From assembly GCA_965219505.1 (NCBI GenBank), contig OZ244775.1, positions 1,101,929 through 1,165,928 of the forward strand: a stretch of 64,000 bases of DNA, written 5' to 3'. Shown here piece by piece: positions 183 to 47,207 of this stretch (position 1 is the stretch's first letter; the number at the start of each line of letters is the position of its first letter). The DNA comes from Chloroflexota bacterium. GTDB taxonomy: Bacteria > Chloroflexota > UBA11872 > VXOZ01. The translations under genes and the position numbers were made by a program. The notes under the pieces are model-generated. The model was given only the letters and a program-made list of their open reading frames with translations. It did not search any database and was not told the DNA's origin.

Positions 183-1490
183 CTAGGTAGGTGAAGCCAT
201 GAGCGCTGTTGGTTCCAGATCCCCCACCCGTATCTCACCTGTCATCAGCTTGTGCAAAAGCGCCTTGAATAGCTCCTCCAGCACGGCGCGCTTGCGGCGG
301 TGCAGGTCTATCTTGCGGTCGATGGTGTTGAGGATGGTGACGATTTCATCCTGTTGGTCATCGCCAGGAAACCAGACGGGAATTGTTGCTGAGAGGCTTG
401 CGTTATAGACAGAGTTAACCGACGATACATTTCTCTGTGAAGTGAAGAAACCACTTAGTCGCAAATGCGTTAACCACCGAAACAGATATCGATTGGAGAC
501 TAATCGATGGGTCCTGAACCTCAGGATAAAGGATGAGTACGTGCATTCATCATCCAACTCGAAAATGACTGTTTTCCCAACATGGCCAGAGCTTCCACTT
601 CTCCAATTGAAGAGCACATCCCCCCTAGAAAGGATCAACCTTTCGCGCTGTTCTTCTGGAACCTTGTAGTACCTACGCTTTTCTAGATTGATGCGGCCTT
701 CAAGGTCCAAGTTGATGTTGGTAAGTATTAGAGTGCCAATTGTGGGGTCTGTGGCATTGGCAACCGCAGCTTGCGCTCCATAGGTAATTTCAGCTAAATC
801 GCCAAGTTGTCTGACATCCCAACTCTCCGGCACTGGCCCAATCTCCGTCTCCTTCTGCGCCTCGCCTCCCAGCCCGCGAGTGAACAGCGTCTGCATCGCG
901 GCGCGTTTGAGAGTTTGCGTTGTCTCAATCGATTGTGTCTCAACAGCCATTAACTGTTGAATCATCTCTAGGGTGTCTGAGACTGTCGTTTGTTCTTCGG
1001 GATCAAACTTTGGGAACGGCAGATCAAGGAGTACAGCGGCGGGTATGCGCTGTCGCCCGGTCGCGCCTTCCATGCGCTCGGCGACATGATGGCGGACATC
1101 GGGATGCAGCAAGTAGAAGAACAACAACCGCCTGTCTTGCCCTTCCTTGCACGGTCGAAGCGGGATAACCTCGGTAGTGGCAATGCCGAAGGGTGTCGGT
1201 AGCCCGGTCGCGAGAGCTTGCTTGCCGTTTTCAAACGACGGCGTAATCTTGGCAATCAGAGCGTCGCCGCGCTCAAAGTAGGTTCCACTCCTGATTTCAC
1301 CCGGGGGCCTCATCATGTAGTCGGGTGTATATGCACCGCCTTGAGGGATGGCGTCCATAGGCACGAACGGGACCGCAGGCAACGAAGCCATATCAAGTCC
1401 ACGAGGCTTCTTCGTGACTTCGTAAGCGTCACCCAACCGCAGCCACCGGCGACCTTCGGCAAGTTCAGTATCAAGCAGAGTCATCAGCAA
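183..1490 (-). CDS. hsdS: Type I restriction-modification specificity subunit HsdS
   Basis: 435-aa ORF with two target-recognition halves separated by conserved helical spacer repeats typical of HsdS; start overlaps the hsdM stop by 20 nt (translational coupling). Confidence 0.8.
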
Positions 1491-3345
1491 CTCCAGCCAG
1501 GAGTTTATGCAGCGACGCCGAAAGCTGGTGGGCTTCCTCGTCGAGCGTGATAAGCTCCGCTAGCAGTTCACGAACGGAACCAACCTCTAATGAGCTTGCC
1601 TGCCCCACCCACCGGCTTGGGCTGAGGTTGTAGTCGGCCTCAGCCGCCTGATCGCGTGTAATGACGGCGACCTCGCCTTCTACCGGCTCACCTTTCACGA
1701 ACATCGCCGCCACCGGCTGGATGTCGTCCTGGGGAATAAAATTCTTGGGGCGTCCCTTACCAACGCGACGGCTTGCGTTGACCAGGACAATCTTGTCCTT
1801 GCGGGCCTCCGGCTTGCGCTTGGACAGCACGACGATGATGCCGGCGGCGCTGGTGTTGTAGAAGAGGTTGTCCGGCAGCAGGATCACGCCGTCGATCAGG
1901 TCCCGCTCCACGAACCACTTGCGGATGTTGCGCTCCCGGTCCTCGTGCCTGGCGCCGGAGCCGCGGGTCACCGCGCCGGTGTCCAGCACCACCGCAGCCC
2001 GCCCGCGCTCGTTCAGGCAGGCCAGGGTGTGCTGGAGCCAGGCCCAGTCGCCCTTGCCGGTGGTGACGCCGCCGGCGGTGCGGAAGCGGTCGAAGAGGTC
2101 GTTCTCAAAGATGTCCTGGCTTAAGCCCTGATTCCACATAGGATTGGCGACCACGATGTCGTGGCCCGTAATACGGCCCACGGTGTCCTTAAACTTGGGG
2201 TTGATCATGGTGTCGCCGCGCTCTATCTGGACCTCCATGTCGTGGATGATCGCGTTCATGCGAGCGACGGCGTAACTGTCGGCTTGCAGTTCCTGACCAA
2301 AGAGTTTGAGGGGAACGCGGCTGATGGGATCGGTCTCGCGGGCGACGAGCTGAAGCTTGATAAGTAGGCCCGCCGATCCGCAGGCGTAGTCGTGACACGT
2401 CTGCCCGGGCCGGGGACGCAGGATGTGGGCCATGAGGAAGCCGACCTCGGTGGGGGTGAAGAACTCGCCCGCGCTCTGACCGGAACCTTCGGCGAACTTG
2501 CGGAGCAGGTACTCATAGGCGCGGCCCAGGAAATCGGGCTGCACGTCGGCGAGGCCGAGCCGGTAGCGGGGGTCGGAAAAGGTCTCGACGACGGCGGCGA
2601 GCCGGGCCGGGTTGATGTCCCGCTCTCCGTTGCGCTCCGACGCAAAGTCCACGAGGTCTATGACGCCGGACAGAGTGGGGTTGTAGCGCACGACGGCGCG
2701 CACGGCACTAGTCAGGTGCTCACCAATGTCGCCGGGGCGGGTGCTACGGCCCTGGGCATCGAGCGGCCAGTCGTGTGCCTCGCGACCGCTGACCACGCTC
2801 CAGCGGGCCTCCGGCGGCAGGTAGAATCGGAGCAAGCCGTGGTCACTCTCCGCGATCTCCTGCGCGATTGTCCGGTCCCCAAATTCTTCGGCCAACCGGT
2901 CGATCTCGTCGTCGAACACGTCGGAGAGGCGTTTGAGGAAGAGGAGTGGCAGGAGGTAATCCTTGAACTTGGCCGCGTCCTTCTCACCGCGAATCGAGCA
3001 GGCGGCGTCCCAAAGCATCTGCTCCATTGGCTTGGTGGTGGGAACATTTGCTTTGCGCCGCTGGGATCTCCGCCGAGTCACCCTGGCGGCGGACTCCGCC
3101 CTATCCACGACTGTTTCAGTAGAATCGATGCCCGCCTCGACCGCAAGCGCGGCAATCGCCGTCCGAGCCGCCTTCTGGGGCATAGTCACGCCGCCCTCCC
3201 ACCGGTTCACCGTCGCGAACGACACGCCAAGCCGGTCGGCAAGTTGCTCCTGCGTCAGATCCAACCTGGCGCGAATGGCTTGCAAAGTTGGACTAACCGA
3301 TTGCCTATCTGTTATATTTGCCATGTTTGCATTATAATTGCTCAC
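1471..3345 (-). CDS. hsdM: Type I R-M N6-adenine DNA methyltransferase HsdM with N-terminal XRE-type HTH domain
   Basis: HsdM N-terminal domain ([38 protein letters not shown]); AdoMet motif [11 protein letters not shown]; motif IV variant VVANPMWNQ; preceded by a classic HTH ([23 protein letters not shown]). Confidence 0.85.
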
Positions 3346-3403
3346 CCATTTGGGGTCAAAACTACCCGATCAATCCTTATCGGGACGTTGCTAGAGAAGA
3401 AAC

Positions 3404-4238
3404 ATGGCGATTCCTGAATCCCAACTTAGTACGTGGTCCCACCACGGTGCCCAGGACTCGTCTAAACGCACCCATGAGGCTATCCGGCGGGCATTGGATG
3501 CATACCGGTGGCCTTCTGGAATGACCCGCGACTTCTACTTACAGGGGTCATACCGGAACGATACGAACATCCGGGGAGACAGCGACGTCGATGTCGTGCT
3601 AGAAATGACCTCGACGTTCAAATACGACACGAGCTCACTCTCCCAATACGAACAGGGGTTGGTTTCCGCATCTTTCCAGGCGGCCAGATACGATTGGAAC
3701 GACTTCCGACGCGAGGCGCTCAAGGCCCTAGAGGGCGAGTTCGGCAGTTGGATGGTGGGGCAGGGCAACAAGTCGATCAAACTGAAGTCGGACCCACCGA
3801 GACTGGCGGCCGATGTTGTTGTCTGCATGCAGCATCGGCAGTACATCAGCTATTCCTCATACATGGAAGGCATTACTTTCTGGGCTCTAGGTGACAGACG
3901 CTGGATAGTCAATTATCCGAAAGAGCACTACAAGAACGGTGAGGAGGTTCAAGAATGCCCGGAATCACTTGGAGTCCGCTGGCAGCATCAGCGCTGACCT
4001 TGCTCCGTCCTACTTCGTCGAGTGCCTTATCTACAATGCGCCAGACTCGGCTTTTCAGCCCGGCTTTCAGGAGACCTACTGCTCCATCGTCAACTGGGTG
4101 GTCGAATCTGCTCTCGACAGGCTCGTCTGCCAGAATGGCCAGCAGTGGCTTTTTGGTTCGTCTCCCGAGCAATGGTCGGTAGAGGATGCAAAGACCTTCG
4201 CGAATCAGCTGGTCTCTCTGTGGAACGACTGGAGGTGA
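3404..4238 (+). pseudogene. SMODS / cGAS-DncV-like nucleotidyltransferase (CD-NTase), split by a frameshift near 3935-3960
   Basis: ORF 3404-3997 has the NTase core QGSYRNDTNIRGDSDVDVV (GS...[DE]h[DE]h) and a downstream acidic residue (RLAADVVV) plus WIVNYPKEH. ORF 3939-4238 in another frame continues with SMODS C-terminal-like sequence (RNHLESAGSISADLAPSYFVECLIYNAPDS). The two halves together give ~280 aa. Confidence 0.6.
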
Positions 4239-4247
4239 CCAACTCGG

Positions 4248-4826
4248 ATGCACTCCTACGAAGTAAAAGGACAAGGAAGAGTTGCGGTAGCACTCGCTGT
4301 CGCCAGCATCTTGATGATCTGGCTCCTCCATGTCGGACTGGACTCTGTTGACTTCGAGCCTCAGTGGTGGTTGAGCGTACCTTCGTTCGCGGGCTGCTAT
4401 TCAGTACTCCATTGGTTGTTCGACCGCTATGTGTGGAAACTTGGGTGGCTGCGGAATCTCAAGCTAATCCAGCTACCCGATCTCAATGGAAAGTGGGTTG
4501 GTGAGGTCGGGTCTTCCTATAGCCGTGACTGTCGCGCCCACTCAGTGTCCGTAGTTATCTTGCAGAGATGGTCGAAAATACTGGTGAGGCTGGAGACTGA
4601 ACATTCTCGCTCCCGGAGCATTACGGCCAGTCTGAGAACCATTGATCTACTCAATCCTGAATTGTCCTACCAGTATGTAAACGAGCCCAAGTCCAATGCT
4701 CCAGGCACCATGGCCATGCACAGAGGAACAGCAGTTCTTGAATTCATTGGCTCTAACCTTGAAGGCGACTACTTTACTGGGCGAGGAAGGGGAGAGGTGG
4801 GGACAATCAAGCTCAGTAAGTCTTGA
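4248..4826 (+). CDS. 2-TM CBASS-type effector (Cap15/SLATT-like): two N-terminal TM helices plus ~120-aa C-terminal beta-rich domain
   Basis: 192 aa. TM1 RVAVALAVASILMIWLLHVGL, TM2 WWLSVPSFAGCYSVLHWLF. Starts 10 nt after the NTase fragment. The architecture matches known SMODS + 2TM effector pairs. Confidence 0.5.
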   Translation: MHSYEVKGQGRVAVALAVASILMIWLLHVGLDSVDFEPQWWLSVPSFAGCYSVLHWLFDRYVWKLGWLRNLKLIQLPDLNGKWVGEVGSSYSRDCRAHSVSVVILQRWSKILVRLETEHSRSRSITASLRTIDLLNPELSYQYVNEPKSNAPGTMAMHRGTAVLEFIGSNLEGDYFTGRGRGEVGTIKLSKS

Positions 4827-5367
4827 CACCACCGTTATGTGGTCGACGGTGGAAGGGACCCGCAGCCTGATGTGTCAGTGGCAGCCCCACTCTACACCCC
4901 TAGCTTGAACCTGAGCGCGATAGTTCTCGATTCTTTCAATGCTGGTGGGCAGTGTAAGACTGTATTGCGAACTTTTCGGTGGAAGATCCTCATATAAAGT
5001 AAGGGGGTCAACTCCCAAAGGCCTCCGTCTCTGATGAGCGGGGGTCTCGTTCAACGCCGTTGCAGGTGCCCCAGCCACTCCGCACCACTAGACTTGGGGC
5101 GCCTACAAGCCCCATTATCGGGGCTCCGCCTCGGCAATCGAACTGGGAATCCTGCCGAAGCCGAGGATGGAACCGGAACCGCGCATGGTCGATGAGAACG
5201 GCAAGGTGGTCCAGGAAGCGCTGGAACTAGCCTTTCAAACAGCTTCCTCGATTGTGCCGATTACCACTGGTTCCTCAAGTGTGCCGTCGTGGTCCTCGGT
5301 GACGGTAAAGTCGCCGTTGAGAAAGACAACGCCAACGACGCGGGCACCATCCACCACCACGTTGCCT

Positions 5368-5720
5368 CTATAAGGTACAGTTCGGACCCACCAAGGTCTT
5401 GCCGAAAAGACGAGCGTTGTCGTCTATAACGGTACTGCCAGCGAGAATGATGTCGCCGCCCACTACGGCATTACCGCAAACGCCTGCCACATCTCGCAGA
5501 AACGCATTGTCGGTCACGCGGCTGTTGTGCAGGGCATAAGCGCGCTCAGATATCCAGCAGTCGCCTTCCTGGTCGAGGTTGGCCTGTCTCTCAATGAGGC
5601 CAGCCTTGTTGCCCGCCGGCCTCCCCATGAGCCTTCCCGTAAGGCGACGATGCGGTACATGCGTTTGCCTTCAGAGTACAACCCGTCTTTGTCATAGACC
5701 ATGCGGTATATTTTCTTCAC
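5368..5720 (-). pseudogene. Degenerate, frameshifted paralog of the beta-helix repeat gene at 8243-8686
   Basis: ORFs 5514-5861 and 5368-5628 together recapitulate the 8243-8686 protein. KKIYRMVYDKDGLYSEGKRMYRIVALREGSWG matches KKYRMVYEKGAWHPEGKLLYRIYALREGDWG. ...ANLDQEGDCWISERAYALHNSRVTDNAFLRDVAGV... matches ...ANLDQEGECWLTDDAFAIQNSRVTGNAHLRDVAGA.... The copy is split by a frameshift. Confidence 0.7.
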
Positions 5721-6253
5721 GATTTGACACTCTCTTATAAAAGTCTTGCCTGCATGAAAGGTACCACCTTGCGAGACGCTGAAAGGTTTCACTTGTGAAA
5801 ATGCAATCTCCCTACGGTGAGCCGCAAGGAGCCACGCGAGGAAAACCACGGCGTGTCTCAATCAGAGACTCACGGATAGGATTTGGTTTAAACTGTCGGA
5901 GGAAACATGCTATCAATACGTTAACTGGAATTCCAGCAAAACCACGCTAAACCCGCACAAAACCAGCAAAGCATAGTGCACTATGCCCCAAAATGCACCC
6001 AAAACCACCACGCTTGCAATTCTAATCATTGGCAATAGACTGCATTAAAGTGTGGTATGCTATAGGTGCAATAGGTAAAAGAGATGTGAAGGAGAACTAC
6101 GAGTTCTCCTTCACGATAGCCACAGCCATATTGGCTGGCGTCGGTCTGCTTAGGAGGTTCGAGACCCGTATCTTTGCTCTTTCAGATCGGGTGTCGCGCA
6201 TAGAAGTCTTACTTGAAGGCTACTTCATGCATGATAGCAAGCAGGAGGATTAG

Positions 6254-7300
6254 CGATGAGCAAGAGTGCCCTATCGTTTGGGGAGATGGTCAAGGCATTT
6301 CTCGCTATCCGGCCAAAAGAGGTCGAGGATTCACCAGATCCCGATACGTCAGACGACTCCCTACCATCCGAGGCACAGCCTCAGCCAGACACTCCAGAGT
6401 GCTCAGACTGATAGTGTTAATGCGCTCGGCGAATTCGTTGACGTAGCGGTGCAGATGCTTGGCGCTCATGCTATGGTAGATGCCTTTATGCCCGCGTTTG
6501 AGCAGCGCCCAGAAGCTCTCGATACCGTTCGTGTGCGTATCGCCCTGCACGTACTCTTTCCGGCTATGCCGTACCCAGGCATGCCAATAGTCCTCCAGGC
6601 CCCGGTAAGCTTTCCAGTCATCGGAGTAAATCGTGGATTCTTTGGCGACGTTCGCATAGATGGCACCATGCAGCGTTTCCCGGCTGGCATCGGGAATTGG
6701 GAACGCTATTACTTTGCCAGTTCGCTCGCGCATGCCGAACACTGTCGTCTTGCCAGACCCGGGGCCTTGCCGGTACTTCTTGTTGGCATGCCGAATGCGG
6801 TCGGAACCACCAACGTAAGTTTCGTCAACTTCCACAACGCCAGCGAGGGGGTCGCCGCCAACGCCCATGAACTCTCTCAGACGATGCATCAAGAACCAGG
6901 CCGTCTTTTGGGTAGTACCAAGCATTTTGGCGAGCTGGATGCTGGAAACGCCCTTGCGGGCGGTGTAGAGGAAGTAGAGAGCGAACAGCCACTTGCGGAG
7001 AGGAAGCTTGCTGCTTTCCATGACGGTGCCGGTACGAACCGAAAAGTGCCTTCGACAGTCCCGGCAACGATAGGGCATAGGTTTGGTGCAATAGGAGATC
7101 GAGGCAGAACCACAATGCGGGCAGATCGGAGTATTGTCCCAGCGATATCGCTCAAAGTAGGCAATAGCAGCTTGCTCGTCGGGGATCATTTCCGTGAATT
7201 CGTAAAGGCTTAAGGATTTCATGGCAAACCTTCAATACTGACTTACCTTACATATAAAGTATTGCCGATCATATACGTTCGTGATTAGAGCCCCGTGGCG
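6254..7300. mobile_element. IS1595-family insertion sequence (ends approximate)
   Basis: Carries an intact IS1595/ISXO2-like transposase gene. AT-richer flanks. Precise terminal inverted repeats not resolved by eye. Confidence 0.6.
6305..7222 (-). CDS. IS1595-family transposase (N-terminal zinc ribbon + DDE domain)
   Basis: 305 aa. Zn-ribbon CPHCGS...CRDCRRHF, then a conserved ISXO2-like DDE core (VVEVDETYVGG ... YSDDWKAY ... NGIESFWALLKR). Confidence 0.85.
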   Translation of the reverse strand: MKSLSLYEFTEMIPDEQAAIAYFERYRWDNTPICPHCGSASISYCTKPMPYRCRDCRRHFSVRTGTVMESSKLPLRKWLFALYFLYTARKGVSSIQLAKMLGTTQKTAWFLMHRLREFMGVGGDPLAGVVEVDETYVGGSDRIRHANKKYRQGPGSGKTTVFGMRERTGKVIAFPIPDASRETLHGAIYANVAKESTIYSDDWKAYRGLEDYWHAWVRHSRKEYVQGDTHTNGIESFWALLKRGHKGIYHSMSAKHLHRYVNEFAERINTISLSTLECLAEAVPRMVGSRLTYRDLVNPRPLLAG

Positions 7301-7359: not shown

Positions 7360-7821
7360 ATGGCAAAGAAAGCTCCGAGCAAGCACTTCCGCAAGGGCAT
7401 GACCCTCATAGAATTACTGGACATGTTCCCCGACGACCCGACCGCCGAGCAATGGTTCGTGAGCGTACGCTGGTCCGATGGCATCCAGTGCGCCTATTGC
7501 AACAGCAAGAACATCACCGTACGTGGCAGTCACCCGAATCAGCCCTACCGCTGCCGCGACTGCCGCAAATTCTTCTCGGTCAAGACCAATTCCATGATGC
7601 ATGCCAGCAACATTGGATACCGCAAGTGGGCACTGGCAATTTACCTAATGACCACAGGTCTCAAAGGCACATCAAGTATGAAACTGCACCGAGACATCGG
7701 CGTGACCCAAAAGACAGCTTGGCACATGGCTCACCGAATCCGAGAAACCTGGGCCCATTCGTATACTGGCGTGTCAGGAGCCAAGAGTGCTAAGGGTCAA
7801 TTCGTGTCCGGAACAGTTTGA
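7360..7821 (+). pseudogene. Truncated second IS1595-family transposase (N-terminal zinc-ribbon/HTH half only, no DDE domain)
   Basis: 153 aa homologous to the N-terminal half of the 6305-7222 protein (CAYCNSK...YRCRDCRKFFSVKTNSMMHASNIGYRKWALAIYLMTTGLKGTSSMKLHRDIGVTQKTAWHMAHRIRE). Ends before the catalytic domain. Divergent from the first copy. Confidence 0.7.
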
Positions 7822-8242
7822 TGTTTAGTCTGTGGAGACATCACACACTTCTGTGAGTATTGAGAGCTATCGTATCTGCTTTGGAGTAAAATGTGTCTGA
7901 CAAGCCCAAGCACAATCCCGACAAGAATCGGAAGCGAGGCCGGCCTGTCATCAAGACCATGCCGCCGAAGATTCCCGATACCCCTGAGAACGTCGCTCGG
8001 GCACTCCTCACTACTCCCCCTAAACCCCGCAAGGCGTCTTAGCCTCTTCGAAAGCCCCTCTGGTTACGATTGTACATAATCCATCTGTATTACAATCTCC
8101 GAACGGAGAAGGGTTGATACGGAGCGCCATGAAAGGCACTACCATGAGAATGTATGATAAAACCTGCTTGGATGTCGGGGACAAGATGAGCCAAAACATG
8201 AACTAGCTTCCTGAGCCCGACCCCAAGAAGGACGTTAAATTC

Positions 8243-8686
8243 GTGGCGAAGAAATACCGCATGGTTTACGAGAAGGGTGCCTGGCACCCCGAAGGCAAAC
8301 TATTGTACCGGATTTACGCTTTGCGTGAAGGCGACTGGGGGCCGGCAGGCACCAAGGGTGGTCTCGTAGAGAAAGCCGCCAACCTGGACCAGGAAGGCGA
8401 GTGCTGGTTGACCGATGATGCCTTCGCCATACAGAACAGCCGCGTAACCGGCAATGCGCATCTGCGTGATGTGGCCGGTGCGTACGATAATGCCAAAGTG
8501 GGCGGCAACTCCGCTTGCGCCGGCACTGCACGGATCATGGGTAACGCCAGTCTCCTGGGCTATACCATCGTGGGGCCGAACTGCACCATCAAAGGCGACG
8601 CGGTCGTAGAGAGTGCCATCATATTCGGGTTCGTTTACATCAACGGCCCATTCACGATCACCGAGGATATCCGTGGAACAATCTAA
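8243..8686 (+). CDS. Hypothetical beta-helix (hexapeptide-like repeat) protein
   Basis: 147 aa with repeated x-N-A-x-[LV] turns (GNAHLRD / DNAKVGG / GNASLLG / PNCTIKG). Intact copy of the gene degenerated at 5368-5720. Confidence 0.5.
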   Translation: MAKKYRMVYEKGAWHPEGKLLYRIYALREGDWGPAGTKGGLVEKAANLDQEGECWLTDDAFAIQNSRVTGNAHLRDVAGAYDNAKVGGNSACAGTARIMGNASLLGYTIVGPNCTIKGDAVVESAIIFGFVYINGPFTITEDIRGTI

Positions 8687-8724
8687 GACGGCCCCGTGCT
8701 ATTGGGTGAAGTCGACGAACCCAG

Positions 8725-9150
8725 CTAAAAGGCGAGTTCCGCCGCTTCCTGTATCAGCTTGCCGCTTTCGTCAACCATACGCGGTTCCGCTTCCACCCTG
8801 GGCAGCGGTAACACCCCAAGTTCGATTGCCACATCGTAGAACCCCCTGTCAGCCAGTCGCATGGCAAGTCGGCGTGTCTGCATGATGCGCTCTGTGCGAG
8901 CGGTTTGGCTTTCATCCTCGGGTTCAGGATAGAGACCCACCGCGATGGCGAGGATATCGTTGTTATTCTCCGTGACATGAAACAACGCCATGCCACGCGC
9001 ATTCAGCCTACGCCGATGTGCAGGTGTGTGCTTCGGGAAGATTTCGCCCACAATGAGGCTGCCGCTCTCATCGTAAATCTCACCCACCGGGGGCGCGCCG
9101 AAACGGCTGCCTCGCTCCAAGCCTTCTCTATTGGGTGTCCTGCTCGCCAT
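8725..9150 (-). CDS. Hypothetical protein (convergent with the 8243 gene)
   Basis: 141-aa ORF. Its C-terminal ~40 aa (AIELGVLPLPRVEAEPRMVDESGKLIQEAAELAF) has a degenerate paralog on the + strand at ~5100-5232 that is interrupted by a stop. Confidence 0.4.
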   Translation of the reverse strand: MASRTPNREGLERGSRFGAPPVGEIYDESGSLIVGEIFPKHTPAHRRRLNARGMALFHVTENNNDILAIAVGLYPEPEDESQTARTERIMQTRRLAMRLADRGFYDVAIELGVLPLPRVEAEPRMVDESGKLIQEAAELAF

Positions 9151-9658: not shown

Positions 9659-10369
9659 TTAGCGCAATAGCATCGGTTCTATTTTCCGGTCAAAATGCAG
9701 AAGACTCGATTGTTCATGCCTTCGCGGGCACTCATTCGCCCCGGCTAGGATTGTATATAGTTCCCTGCGCTTAGTATCGCCGCGCAGGAAGTTCTGCTGC
9801 AGCTCCACGTACACCGCGTAAGGGCTGTCTTCGACAAGGTCGCCGTACCACGCCACGTACTCTTTCAGCAGCGTCATCGCCGCTTGGTGGCGGTCTGCCT
9901 CTATCAGTCTCGCAAGAGGCCCGTCACGGCCGCCGGTGAGCAGAATCAGACCTGCAGCATGCTTCGGCAGATGTGCCGGGTCCAGCCGCGGCTCCCTGCG
10001 GTCGACGGCGTTCGCCAGCGTGAACAGCCGCGAAAGGTTGGCATAGCCCTCCCGCGTCCTGGCCAGCAGAACAAGGCGCGAACCATCCAGCAGGGTGAGC
10101 TCGCCGCCGGTGATGGGCCGGACCTCCAGGCTGTTGGCGAGGCGTGCGAAGTCCAGCGCCCCGCAGAGGTTGGTGTCGGTCAGGGCAAGGGCAGGGTAAC
10201 CGAATGCCTTGGCCTGGGCGAGCAACTCGTGCGTGTGGGAGGCTCCCGTCCCGAAGGAGTAGAAGCTCTTAGCGTGCAGCTCAACGTATCCGGCGGACGG
10301 CGACTGCGTCGAAGACATGGGGCTGTCCCTATGCGGCCTGCTGGTACCAGCGTCCGCCTCTCCGGTCAT
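9659..10369 (-). pseudogene. dnaE2: Error-prone DNA polymerase DnaE2 (ImuC), N-terminal PHP-domain fragment only (236 of ~1000+ aa)
   Basis: YVELHAKSFYSFGTGASHTHELLAQAKAFGYPALALTDTNLCGALDF... is the canonical PHP N-terminus of DnaE2/PolIIIalpha. The ORF stops after 236 aa and no continuation exists in any frame. It lies immediately downstream of imuB. Confidence 0.75.
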
Positions 10370-11804
10370 GGAACAGGGTGAGCGGAATCCCGTCTGCCCG
10401 CCGTACCCGGTAGTAGGTACGCGTAAGCGGCGCAGCCAGCCACCAGAGATCGAAGCACCATTGGTCGTCGATGCAGGCTACCTGATGCCACCGGTTCTTC
10501 AAGCGTACGGCTACGGGCTGGTTATCCTCGCCTGCCCGCACTTCCGTTGCCGTGGGCGTCGCCAGGGGTCTCATGCTGTCCTTCACCGCCGGATCGATGG
10601 GTACCTGCAGCGCGCGCAACTCCGGCGCGGGATGCCAGGGCGCAATATCCACCACCCGGAACAGCGCGCGCTTGCCCTGCATACGGGCTTGGAGCTGTCT
10701 GTCCGCCTCTACTAAACGGTCGGTCCTATCCTTGCGGACGTCGCGGAGCAGCCCCATCTGCATAGCGGACTCGCCCGTCAGATTCGCCAGGGTGAGCGTC
10801 ACCTCCTCGACAGGCGCGGGAGGATAGTCGGATTCCAGACGGCTTCTGATGATGCGCGCGGCCCGCTCGCAACCAACGCCGTGCTTGAAGTGGACGATTC
10901 TTTCCCACGGCGACGAGCGGAAAAGGCTGCACTGTATGGTGGCCTGCTCGGCATACCGCCCCCGCATCTGCGGCCGCGCGTACGCGCTCTTCAGCAGACC
11001 GTCCAGTGTCACCAGGAAGAGTTCCAGGGAGGTAGAGACAAACGGCAGCGTGACGTGTGCGGCAACGGACTCCTCGTGTTTTAGCGGGACAAAGGCCTCG
11101 TCGTCTATACCGTGGCAGAGCTGCCAGGCCCGGGTGCCGTCAGCGCCGAACTGGTCGCTGAGTTGGTCTACGCGCATGGCCGCCACGTCGCCCAAGGTGC
11201 GCAAGCCGAAGCGTTGCAGGCGCGCCAGCACTGCGGGAGCGAGCGGCAGCAGCGTAACGGGATGCGGCGCTAAGAACGCAGCCGCATACTCAGGCACTCG
11301 CGTTACCTCACCTGCCCGGCTGGCTTGGGCTGCGACCAGAGCAGGAAACTTGGCGTCCGCTACGCCTACGCGCGGCGCGAGGTCTTGGGGCACGGCGTTC
11401 AGCAAGGCGGCGGCAAGCCGCTCTTCACCTCCGTAGAGGGCCTCCAGTCCGTCGAGGCGCACGTACGCGACACCCAGCGCCGCATGCTCCACCCGATCGC
11501 TGACCTCCTGGAGAGAAGTAAGCACCTGCCGGAATACCTGCCGGTACGCCGGTTCGTTGGCTTCGATGACGACGGTGTTGGCATTATGGGAGAGCGCCTC
11601 CTCCAGCGACATGCCCACCGCTACCCCGGTGGTGGCCGGAAAGACGTCAATGACCTGAGGGCTGCTCGCCGAGCGGTCGACTATCACGGCTGGCGCTTGC
11701 GCCAGCTTGGGCTGCCGCCGCAACTCGCACTTGGCCCGCAAGTGGGTAATGAGCACACAGGCAACTTTCATGATGCCGCACCTCTTGTCTCCATTCCTTG
11801 CCAT
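10329..11804 (-). CDS. imuB: ImuB (catalytically inactive Y-family polymerase-like mutasome subunit)
   Basis: Y-family/ImuB-like N-terminus (MKVACVLITHLRAK; likely true start near 11771). It lacks the DMDxFF catalytic acidic motif of DinB. It overlaps and precedes dnaE2. Confidence 0.7.
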   Translation of the reverse strand: MARNGDKRCGIMKVACVLITHLRAKCELRRQPKLAQAPAVIVDRSASSPQVIDVFPATTGVAVGMSLEEALSHNANTVVIEANEPAYRQVFRQVLTSLQEVSDRVEHAALGVAYVRLDGLEALYGGEERLAAALLNAVPQDLAPRVGVADAKFPALVAAQASRAGEVTRVPEYAAAFLAPHPVTLLPLAPAVLARLQRFGLRTLGDVAAMRVDQLSDQFGADGTRAWQLCHGIDDEAFVPLKHEESVAAHVTLPFVSTSLELFLVTLDGLLKSAYARPQMRGRYAEQATIQCSLFRSSPWERIVHFKHGVGCERAARIIRSRLESDYPPAPVEEVTLTLANLTGESAMQMGLLRDVRKDRTDRLVEADRQLQARMQGKRALFRVVDIAPWHPAPELRALQVPIDPAVKDSMRPLATPTATEVRAGEDNQPVAVRLKNRWHQVACIDDQWCFDLWWLAAPLTRTYYRVRRADGIPLTLFHDRRGGRWYQQAA

Positions 11805-12100: not shown

Positions 12101-15192
<3,092 letters not shown>

Positions 15193-15431
15193 GCTTCTAA
15201 TCGGCAAATTTGGAGTTCTGCAATCTGTGAATTATTCTCCAAGCGCGAGAATTCTATCACCTAGGTCGGGAAAGTCATGGCGGGTTTGTACGCCAGGCGT
15301 TCCCAATAAAGAACTGCGCATCGTTCACTATTGCACTTTGACATAACGCGTCGTCTCTTGATGTGCGCCTGCTACCCGTCGTTGGGCGGCCTCGCACGTA
15401 CGGCACGTTTCTAATATCCCAGTCAAGAATT

Positions 15432-15550
15432 CCTTGGGTGACAAGGCGAGGGGGGTACACCCGTTCCCATCCCGAACACGGTAGTTAAGCCCCTTAGCAC
15501 TGACGATACTGCACGGGCGACTGTGTGGGAAAATAGGCCGTTGCCCAAGG
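15432..15550 (+). rRNA. rrf: 5S ribosomal RNA
   Basis: CCTTGGGTGACAAGGCGAGGGGGGTACACCCGTTCCCATCCCGAACACGGTAGTTAAGCCCC...GGCCGTTGCCCAAGG with complementary ends; ~240-nt spacer after the 23S. Confidence 0.9.
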
Positions 15551-35201: not shown

Positions 35202-35252
35202 TGTTTCAGTGAAGTTCGTACTACAAGCCTCCGGGTCTGAGGTGCGAGTGGG

Positions 35253-35325
35253 TGGAGATGAGGAGACTCGAACTCCTGCCCCCCTCCTTGCAAAGGAGGT
35301 GCTCTCCCAACTGAGCTATGTCCCC
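35253..35325 (-). tRNA. tRNA-Ala(TGC)-like second copy, probably a pseudo-tRNA
   Basis: 73 nt identical to the 44795-44870 tRNA-Ala over the D-arm, anticodon arm and T-arm. The 5' acceptor strand is GGGGACA against 3' CATCTCC, so the two basal pairs are mismatched (C6-A67, A7-C66). The genomic 3' end is CCC rather than CCA. Confidence 0.5.
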
Positions 35326-44794: not shown

Positions 44795-44870
44795 TGGTGG
44801 AGATGAGGAGACTCGAACTCCTGACCCCCTCCTTGCAAAGGAGGTGCTCTCCCAACTGAGCTACATCCCC
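44795..44870 (-). tRNA. tRNA-Ala(TGC), CCA encoded, G3:U70 present
   Basis: GGGGATGTAGCTCAGTTGGGAGAGCACCTCCTTTGCAAGGAGGGGGTCAGGAGTTCGAGTCTCCTCATCTCCACCA. Perfect cloverleaf, anticodon TGC. Confidence 0.9.
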
Positions 44871-45088
44871 GTGACTGGCAGCCGCGCAGAGCGCTAAAGG
44901 CGCATCGAAACCCCTCAACAAGCCCCAGCACGCCCCGGGCCGCGATGGAGGCATCGGTTCGTGTCTGCCGGAATTCTCAAATGCTTTGCAGGCGAAAGTT
45001 GAAAGGGTTGCGCAGTGAAAACTATCCCTACAATGCTCGTTCCGGCCTGTGCCGCATTTATAAAGAGGCTGCGGTTTCGCTGCCGTCG

Positions 45089-45166
45089 TGGTGGGCCACT
45101 GTGGATTTGAACCACAGACCTCGCCCTTATCAGGGGCGCGCTCTAACCAAGCTGAGCTAGTGGCCC
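45089..45166 (-). tRNA. tRNA-Ile(GAT), CCA encoded
   Basis: GGGCCACTAGCTCAGCTTGGTTAGAGCGCGCCCCTGATAAGGGCGAGGTCTGTGGTTCAAATCCACAGTGGCCCACCA. Anticodon GAT. Confidence 0.9.
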
Positions 45167-45676
45167 GCAGAATACGCTGTAAAGCCAGTCTCTTGTTTAT
45201 TGTACCACCCTTGGCTTGGCCTGCACGTCGCCAATTCAGTGGCAGGCAAATCGCATTTCTCACAGGGGGAATATAGCGCAGCAAACGCCGGTATGCAACT
45301 TTGCCAAGCGGCTGTATGGTGGACAAATCGACGCCATGAGTCCGGCCGTGTATCGGTGAGTCAGCTATCGAATTTCGCGCACAGAGTGGTCAGGCAAGTG
45401 GGACCAAGTCTGCGGGCAGGTGCAGATTGTCACTCGGCTGAGACATGACTAGACGCACATTCGGCACTTCGACCGGTAGGTTTGGAGGGAGGGTAAAGGA
45501 GTGGAGTGAGGTACAGAAAGATCCCTCAGTGGGGAGAGGGATCGTTGTTTTAGGGGATATAGAGCGATGGAAAAGGAGGCTGGCTTAGCAGGTGGAGGGT
45601 GATGAAGGGGGTGTTGGGAAGGAGAGAAAGGGGAAATAAGAAAAGGGATAGGTGGTAGGTGGGTAAAAGAACCCTA

Positions 45677-47207
<1,531 letters not shown>

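Follow-up and report, generated by a model that had tools for sequence, protein, structure and literature searches.

The locus examined here is very probably a type I CBASS operon composed of CdnE and Cap15, in which the sensor-synthase was lost recently. In the window, by which we mean the whole 64-kb stretch of DNA that was analyzed, the ORF table and the sequence place a cGAS/DncV-like nucleotidyltransferase, distributed over two reading frames, at positions 3404-4238, and a cap15 ORF downstream of it at 4248-4826. The ATG of cap15 at 4248 lies 9 nt past the cyclase stop codon (4236-4238). Both genes are on the plus strand and are divergent from hsdM and hsdS of a type I restriction-modification (R-M) operon on the minus strand. 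Our reading is built on the observed family membership of the two proteins, a deletion that bears a repeat signature, a cap15 gene that is intact, and synteny. Neither flank of the pair was found to carry Cap2/Cap3, HORMA/TRIP13 or any further signature accessory gene, and by its gene content the pair is a type I CBASS with a cyclase and an effector only. An earlier note on this DNA had already proposed a type I cyclase-effector pair of the CD-NTase and Cap15 type, and the PADLOC, Pfam and PDB matches described below bear this out.

The 5' part of the cyclase gene (codons 1-179, positions 3404-3940, plus strand) encodes a Pol-beta nucleotidyltransferase core, as indicated by PADLOC, NCBIfam and the alignment to RmCdnE, the CdnE of Rhodothermus marinus (PDB 6E0K/6E0L; PMC10442399). 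The 3' part (positions 3939-4238, plus strand, 99 aa) encodes the C-terminal helical domain and corresponds to residues 194-292 of intact relatives, but is out of frame. The core motifs reported in the earlier note for the ORF at 3404 (GS-x9-DSDVDVV, a downstream Asp, and WIVNYPKEH) are all present in the sequence, where they read G48-S49, nine residues, D59-S60-D61-V62-D63-V-V, followed by the third catalytic aspartate D137 (AADVVVC) and W167-IVNYPKEH with the lid asparagine N170. The GS, the [DE]x[DE] and the third Asp of the Pol-beta core align with those of RmCdnE. The PADLOC Cyclase profile PDLC00788 matched the 5' piece over profile positions 1-188 of 297 (E = 1.7e-66) and the 3' piece over positions 200-297 (E = 2e-32), and NCBIfam NF053871 (anti-phage nucleotidyltransferase) matched the two pieces at 1.2e-56 and 1.2e-24, respectively. 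Pfam SMODS on its own remained marginally below its threshold (25.8 vs 26.5 bits). The newer family CD_NTase_C was found on cyclase homologues.

A database search retrieved 4040 cyclase homologues at E ≤ 1e-10, and among the matches listed these were mostly 292 aa long, the best being 81% identical. The repaired window translation matched RmCdnE at E = 9.7e-81, with the 5' part aligned to RmCdnE residues 1-175 and a 14-residue gap at residues 176-189, and matched EmCdnE and EfCdnE at 2.6e-31 and 1e-28. When a profile made from 13 homologues was compared with the PDB, 6E0K/6E0L ranked first (1.5e-99), followed by 6E0M (EmCdnE), EfCdnE, LpCdnE and ClCdnE. The matches to PADLOC Cyclase and, for the effector, to the PADLOC 2TM profile and Pfam Cap15_CD_rec (see below) go far beyond chance expectation. 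Judged by these matches, the cyclase is a clade-E CD-NTase (CdnE) of normal size that is neither unusually short nor divergent. The earlier description of both proteins as short and divergent is not supported, given that intact relatives have 292 aa compared with 296 aa in RmCdnE and that the family profile matches at 1.5e-99. The same CD-NTase profile and RmCdnE matches rule out an MNT/HEPN-type or other minimal nucleotidyltransferase, and they decisively settle the question of whether a CD-NTase profile would match at all, both of which the earlier note had raised against its own proposal.

The effector gene (positions 4248-4826, plus strand) is intact and encodes a protein of 192 aa with two transmembrane helices (2TM) and a cyclic-dinucleotide-binding beta-barrel, as supported by Pfam, PDB, and AlphaFold/Foldseek. 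Pfam Cap15_CD_rec (PF18153) matched above its cut-off (4.7e-30, 104.9 bits), as did Cap15_TM (3.2e-7, 31.4 bits vs a cut-off of 28.2), and the PADLOC 2TM effector profile PDLC00703 matched at 5.4e-58. The Cap15 of Yersinia aleksiciae (PDB 7N34) was found at 5.3e-12. An AlphaFold model calculated from a 20-sequence alignment (pLDDT 78) shows helices at residues 9-33 and 40-65 and a C-terminal nine-strand beta domain at residues 81-191. In hydropathy, helix 1 is strong and the aromatic-rich helix 2 weaker. The best three Foldseek matches in the PDB were all Y. aleksiciae Cap15, with TM scores of 0.82-0.84 (7N34 at the top, 0.83) and rmsd values of 2.4-2.8. Both the predicted architecture of two N-terminal TM helices with a C-terminal beta domain and the structure prediction proposed as a check thus agree with the earlier note. 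In contrast, its view that the C-terminal domain has no nameable match has to be abandoned, as this is the Cap15 cyclic-dinucleotide receptor domain (PF18153, 104.9 bits; 7N34), and a novel effector domain is ruled out by Pfam Cap15_CD_rec, PDB 7N34 and Foldseek. The window protein matches 44 of 44 invariant columns in the 20-sequence family alignment, in which it is itself included. Its dN/dS is 0.10-0.17 against relatives, the same range as in intact pairs, and a 100%-identical protein exists in the database. From sequence and model alike, the effector is an ordinary Cap15. A single deviation was noticed among the nearly invariant columns, at residue 176, where Tyr is conservatively replaced by Phe.

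The cyclase gene carries a deletion. As assembled, the 5' ORF spans 3404-3997, encodes 197 aa and ends at a premature TGA (3995-3997). Protein and DNA alignments and megablast show that 44 nt, i.e., 14 codons plus 2 nt, are missing relative to every relative, and since 44 is not a multiple of three, the frame shifts and runs into this stop. The DNA alignment with two relatives (L001 and L002) contains one clean 44-column gap, and the megablast alignments to relatives all break at 3939-3941 and restart at 3929-3934. The junction (positions 3934-3941, plus strand) holds a single GAACGGTG, of which relatives have two copies 44 nt apart. Among the 11 relatives whose junction was compared, L003, L010 and L037 have both copies of this 8-nt direct repeat. 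Slippage or microhomology-mediated deletion leaves just this mark, a single copy here as opposed to two in relatives. The earlier note spoke of a frameshift that read data might repair, but 14 conserved residues are gone, and a single-base or programmed frameshift is ruled out by the DNA alignment and the junction comparison.

In the protein alignment, the 14 residues absent between KNG and VRMFKNA read AAKSTRTWDRYKRT in the relative P0001, and half of them are family-invariant (K182, T186, D188, R189, K191, R192 and T193). The 197-aa product lacks the C-terminal helical domain and hence is not the intact single chain of the family. The donor-phosphate Lys/Arg, the Ser-Tyr/Phe stacking pair and the lid are known from other family members (ClCdnE R197; LpCdnE K201, S220 and Y221; (R/Q)xW; PMC10442399), and the out-of-frame part holds the residues that serve for donor phosphates, base stacking and the C-terminal lid in ClCdnE, LpCdnE and EfCdnE. 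Taken together, the deletion, the frame shift and the lost residues mark the cyclase gene, as assembled, as a pseudogene of the CdnE family rather than a working member. We infer that the cyclase has become inactive and that the deletion arose in vivo. The 3' part shows no secondary stops or indels and has a dN/dS of 0.14-0.20 against relatives, and the whole gene has a dN/dS of 0.10-0.18 (Nei-Gojobori), the same range as intact pairs. The low dN/dS in both halves and the lack of secondary lesions suggest that the loss happened recently, or else, with lower probability, that it is an artefact of the assembly. When JGI metagenome contigs were scanned with the junction and with the 5' flank, neither gave a match, and the deletion allele was thus found on no independent contig.

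It is unlikely, in our estimation, that the operon is intact in the organism and that the 44-nt gap arose as an artefact of assembly or consensus calling, for example through collapse between the two GAACGGTG repeats, or represents a minority allele picked by the assembler. The absence of any other lesion in either cyclase half, a dN/dS as low as in intact relatives and a perfectly intact cap15 would all fit a functional but mis-assembled gene, and the gap is bounded exactly by short direct repeats, at which the polymerase or the alignment may slip in vitro as well. However, replication slippage in vivo yields exactly this signature. Errors of assembly mostly take the form of homopolymer or single-base indels, and a clean 44-nt loss from repeat to repeat is unlike them. 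The surroundings of the operon are decaying as well: homology to relatives is lost after the cap15 stop codon, beyond which lie an IS1595 transposase, a fragment of a transposase and a dnaE2 that is truncated, and independent truncations of the same genes occur in several relatives (cdn or cap15 in L059, L045, L011, L005 and L070). That the 197-aa and 99-aa ORFs form a split enzyme, or that programmed frameshifting restores one chain, is almost certainly wrong. Both pieces are open, and the second has a possible GTG start at the junction (3939), but no Shine-Dalgarno-like purine run precedes this codon, and the 14 residues with their seven family-invariant positions would be missing either way. 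None of the best homologues among the matches listed is split in this manner, as they are single chains of mostly 292 aa, and the removal of 44 nt from between repeats is the scar of a mutation and not a recoding signal.

An intact effector next to a broken cyclase might also be explained if Cap15 were kept as an orphan receptor, fired by the same nucleotide from a paralogous CdnE elsewhere in the genome. Related MAGs do carry two or three CdnE-Cap15 copies (L005, L006 and L008 in one, L007 and L013 in another, L019 and L021 in a third), and cap15 retains all family-invariant residues. We nevertheless regard such a role as highly improbable, since no second cyclase and no second cap15 was found within the 64-kb window and a recent deletion alone equally predicts an intact cap15.

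Recent loss of the synthase from a CdnE-Cap15 operon is therefore the reading that we favor, and the mechanism follows the established logic of such operons (PMC10686824, PMC10442399, PMC12657218). In intact relatives, the 292-aa CdnE would sense infection and synthesize a cyclic dinucleotide, predicted to be 3'3'-cUMP-AMP. The nucleotide would bind the beta-barrel of Cap15, leading to oligomerization via the two TM helices and to disruption of the inner membrane, and the infected cell would die ahead of phage release (abortive infection). Ligand-induced oligomerization and membrane disruption are known for YaCap15 and Ssc-Cap15 (PMC10686824, PMC12657218). In the window, slippage between two GAACGGTG repeats would have removed 44 nt of the cyclase gene and with them the 14 conserved residues (AAKSTRTWDRYKRT in relatives), and the frame shift would end the product at 197 aa. 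This cyclase gene would then give no signal, and the intact Cap15 would consequently stay silent unless another cyclase in the genome supplies its ligand.

The predicted product follows from the likeness to RmCdnE, with which the family is collinear over its full length and shares the GS...DxD...D core, the lid asparagine, and the donor-pocket cysteine and glutamate. In the alignment, RmCdnE C252 corresponds to the Cys of LVCQNG, E265 to the Glu of PEQW, and N166 to N170. In RmCdnE, N166 is the lid residue that reads the acceptor uracil, and with C252 and E265 the donor pocket stays open to accommodate a purine (PMC10442399). Because the lid asparagine and the open donor pocket are in the RmCdnE states, intact relatives are predicted to make 3'3'-cUMP-AMP. 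RmCdnE itself makes this nucleotide, whereas for the Dehalococcoidia family the product is only predicted, and the predictions of product and trigger are extrapolated from homologues of roughly 50% identity. The window copy differs from RmCdnE in lacking an equivalent of residues 176-189 and in having the remainder out of frame.

Type I (I-B) CBASS operons of CdnE and Cap15 have the same two-gene arrangement as found here, with a cyclase followed by a 2TM and beta-barrel Cap15, and likewise have no Cap2/Cap3 or HORMA/TRIP13 accessory genes. Our comparison set comprised Ssc-CdnE03/Cap15 of Staphylococcus schleiferi, whose trigger is phage cabRNA, EfCdnE of Enterococcus faecalis, ClCdnE of Cecembia lonarensis, LpCdnE of Legionella pneumophila, and the Cap15 of Y. 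aleksiciae. In contrast to these operons, the window cyclase is inactivated, its similarity to their cyclases is modest (E = 1e-21 to 1e-31), and its host is from a Dehalococcoidia lineage that is uncultured. Among curated models, those that score best for the two genes are NCBIfam NF053871, named 'DS2_2_antiphage', and PADLOC PDLC00788 and PDLC00703. Intact Dehalococcoidia relatives reach 304-310 bits with NF053871 compared with an equivalog cut-off of 350 bits, and the two window halves sum to ~279 bits. A literature search found no publication for the study behind the name "DS2_2".

A further relative of the effector is OptE of the Panoptes system, which, like Cap15, is an effector of the S-2TM-beta family (PMC12657218). 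The partner of OptE in OptS-OptE is an mCpol, whereas here it is a CD-NTase, and the two effectors respond in opposite ways, the absence of its nucleotide making OptE toxic and the presence of the ligand making Cap15 toxic. The combination of an intact effector with a dead synthase therefore fits the activation logic of Cap15 and not the inhibition logic of OptE, and we infer that this combination is tolerable only under the ligand-activated mode. The window thus offers a natural cyclase knock-out next to an intact Cap15 that is in line with a ligand-activated rather than a ligand-inhibited effector.

Both proteins belong to well-characterized families, and the pair is a recently decayed copy of a known system, not a new variant. 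The little-characterized variant considered in the earlier note can be set aside, as operons of CdnE and Cap15 have already been studied experimentally (PMC10686824, PMC10442399). The biological stake is accordingly small, the locus being one more, and broken, example of a CBASS type that has already been studied in vivo and is covered by crystal structures and curated HMMs. For annotation, it illustrates that what looks like a "frameshift" in a defence gene may be a deletion mediated by repeats, and the gene hence a true pseudogene. It also points to an abundant, unstudied Dehalococcoidia lineage of CdnE-Cap15, often found beside type I R-M systems and apparently common also to Nitrosopumilus-type archaea.

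The neighboring operon is represented in the window by hsdS and hsdM, both open. The specificity subunit hsdS (positions 183-1490, minus strand, 435 aa) matched Pfam Methylase_S at 3.3e-13 and PADLOC Specificity_I at 1.4e-64, and overlaps the end of hsdM by 20 nt. The methyltransferase hsdM (positions 1471-3324, minus strand, 617 aa) carries an N-terminal Xre-type HTH and matched Pfam N6_Mtase (5.9e-75), HsdM_N (3.9e-22) and HTH_3 (6.4e-9) as well as PADLOC MTase_I (1.4e-149). These profile matches on the minus strand are in agreement with the placement, given in the earlier note, of the pair divergently from a type I hsdMS in a small defence island. The reading frame of hsdM is open to a GTG at 3345. 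A database protein (P0241) that is 100% identical to the window HsdM has a length of 617 aa, which identifies ATG 3324 as the true start, and 79 nt therefore separate the divergent start codons. A consensus scan revealed a promoter-like site for hsdM (TTGACC-17 nt-TATAAT, positions 3331-3359, minus strand, 11 of 12 matches), the -10 hexamer of which ends 6 nt ahead of ATG 3324. This position suggests that the hsdM mRNA is leaderless or near-leaderless. The arrangement TTGAC, 17-18 nt, TATAMT, GCAAAC and ATG is kept in seven loci, with or without CBASS, and its occurrence in all three CBASS-free loci examined indicates that the promoter-like element belongs to the R-M unit. The idea that the block at 3308-3336 is a specially conserved shared operator is not supported, because invariant runs that are equally long or longer occur inside hsdM.

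The 80 related loci that we compared come from genomes that represent species, chiefly MAGs of Dehalococcoidia or Chloroflexota, with more distant copies in Nitrosopumilus/Thaumarchaeota, candidate-phyla-radiation bacteria, Planctomycetota and Acidobacteriota. Immediately 3' of the cyclase, cap15 was found in 74 of the 80 loci, while a type I hsdM adjoins the CBASS pair in 17. The same HTH-hsdM (82-86% aa identity) is divergently adjacent in seven genome loci and one metagenome contig, and ten further loci have another hsdM lineage (~30% identity) in the same position; the one of these ten that was checked (L012) contains a full hsdM-hsdS-hsdR operon. The three loci with the closest hsdM (L083-L085, 90-93% aa identity) have neither cdn nor cap15, although the HsdS of one of them (L084) is 89% identical to that of the window, and the closest cdn-cap15 copy (L011, 88-90% nt identity) has no hsdM. 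An obligate R-M/CBASS unit is ruled out by these CBASS-free and hsdM-free loci, and since the closest hsdM relatives are without CBASS, the CBASS pair is a facultative cassette in the defence island.

We consider it quite doubtful that the position of CdnE-Cap15 upstream of the hsdM promoter reflects a functional or regulatory coupling of restriction and CBASS beyond the clustering in a defence island. The settings in which the cassette is placed next to hsdM are two unrelated Dehalococcoidia HsdM lineages (83% and ~30% identical to the window HsdM), 17 of the 80 related loci, and Staphylococcus schleiferi, where a type I R-M system likewise borders the CdnE03-Cap15 operon (PMC10686824). If there is such coupling, the HTH domain fused to HsdM may control both divergent transcription units.

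The GC content drops from ~0.65 in hsdM to ~0.53 in the CBASS cassette. On the right side, the megablast alignments to relatives reach no further than the stop codon of cap15, and the flank beyond contains an inverted duplication (5133-5725 and 8238-8830) that encloses the IS1595 transposase and the transposase fragment, as well as a dnaE2 cut down to its PHP domain. The CBASS cassette and the R-M operon thus form a small defence island with a rearranged right-hand side. Only three distinct loci among the relatives have a 246-aa gene after cap15 (L001; L002, which is identical in place to L007; and L041, with a fragment), and neither this gene nor a remnant of it was found in the window. On the left side, the position of hsdR in relatives would put this gene past the window edge. 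There, hsdR comes after hsdS with one to four inserted genes in between, among them one for a Schlafen/AlbA_2-HATPase protein or for an AAA_21 ATPase.

A type I hsdM gene divergently adjoins the CdnE-Cap15 cassette, that is the CBASS cyclase gene followed by cap15, in 17 of the 80 related genome loci surveyed (within L003-L047 and L059), and these hsdM neighbours belong to two unrelated HsdM lineages. Some individual MAGs have the cassette in two or three copies (L005/L006/L008, L007/L013, and L019/L021). The same CdnE-Cap15 pair is also present in Thaumarchaeota/Nitrosopumilus MAGs (L032, L035, and L036; one of these assemblies is chromosome-level), with identities of 55-61% for the cyclase and 45-47% for Cap15, and this shared pair suggests that the CBASS lineage was transferred between bacteria and archaea.

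The operon has decayed independently in several relatives. The cyclase lacks residues 1-136 in L059, has its first 37 N-terminal residues replaced in L011, the closest copy, and carries a frameshift at residue 225 in L070, while in L045 it is truncated near residue 186 and cap15 is absent. In L005, it is cap15 that is cut, ending at residue 115.

HsdM carries an Xre-type HTH domain fused at its N-terminus. A promoter-like element (TTGAC, 17-18 nt, TATAMT) lies together with the hsdM ATG at 3324-3359 on the minus strand and is kept in all seven loci compared (the window, L001, L003, L009, and the closest hsdM loci without CBASS, L083-L085). Since this conserved element stops 6 nt upstream of the ATG, the hsdM transcript appears to be translated without a leader.

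Related type I R-M operons contain additional genes between hsdS and hsdR (L007, 3729-6919; L037, 1749-6739; L083-L085), encoding a Schlafen/AlbA_2 plus HATPase_c_4 protein, an AAA_21/SMC-like ATPase, or a 654-665-aa protein for which no family match was found. Directly behind cap15, three distinct loci have a 246-aa gene that likewise matches nothing: L001, L002 (identical in location to L007) and, with only a fragment of the gene, L041.

To the right of cap15, the window contains a large inverted duplication (5133-5725 and 8238-8830; arms of 103-189 nt, 71-75% complementary), in which a left-handed beta-helix (hexapeptide-repeat) protein is represented by paralogous fragments, together with an unknown ORF. 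Enclosed between the two parts of the duplication, an IS1595-family transposase gene runs on the minus strand (6305-7222), accompanied by a zinc-ribbon fragment of a transposase (7360-7821). Beyond this island, an ImuB-like Y-family polymerase gene (10329-11804, minus strand) is directly followed by a dnaE2-like gene of which only the N-terminal PHP domain is left (9659-10369, minus strand; 236 aa). It appears that the rearranged island, which lies to the left, has truncated this operon for error-prone polymerases.

The rRNA genes of the window are unlinked, with 23S-5S (12102-15549, plus strand) and 16S-tRNA-Ile-tRNA-Ala (44795-47207, minus strand) about 30 kb apart on opposite strands; an additional tRNA-Ala(TGC) lies at 35251-35325. 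Because the 23S match is longer than the model (3091 versus 2925 nt), this gene may contain insertions.
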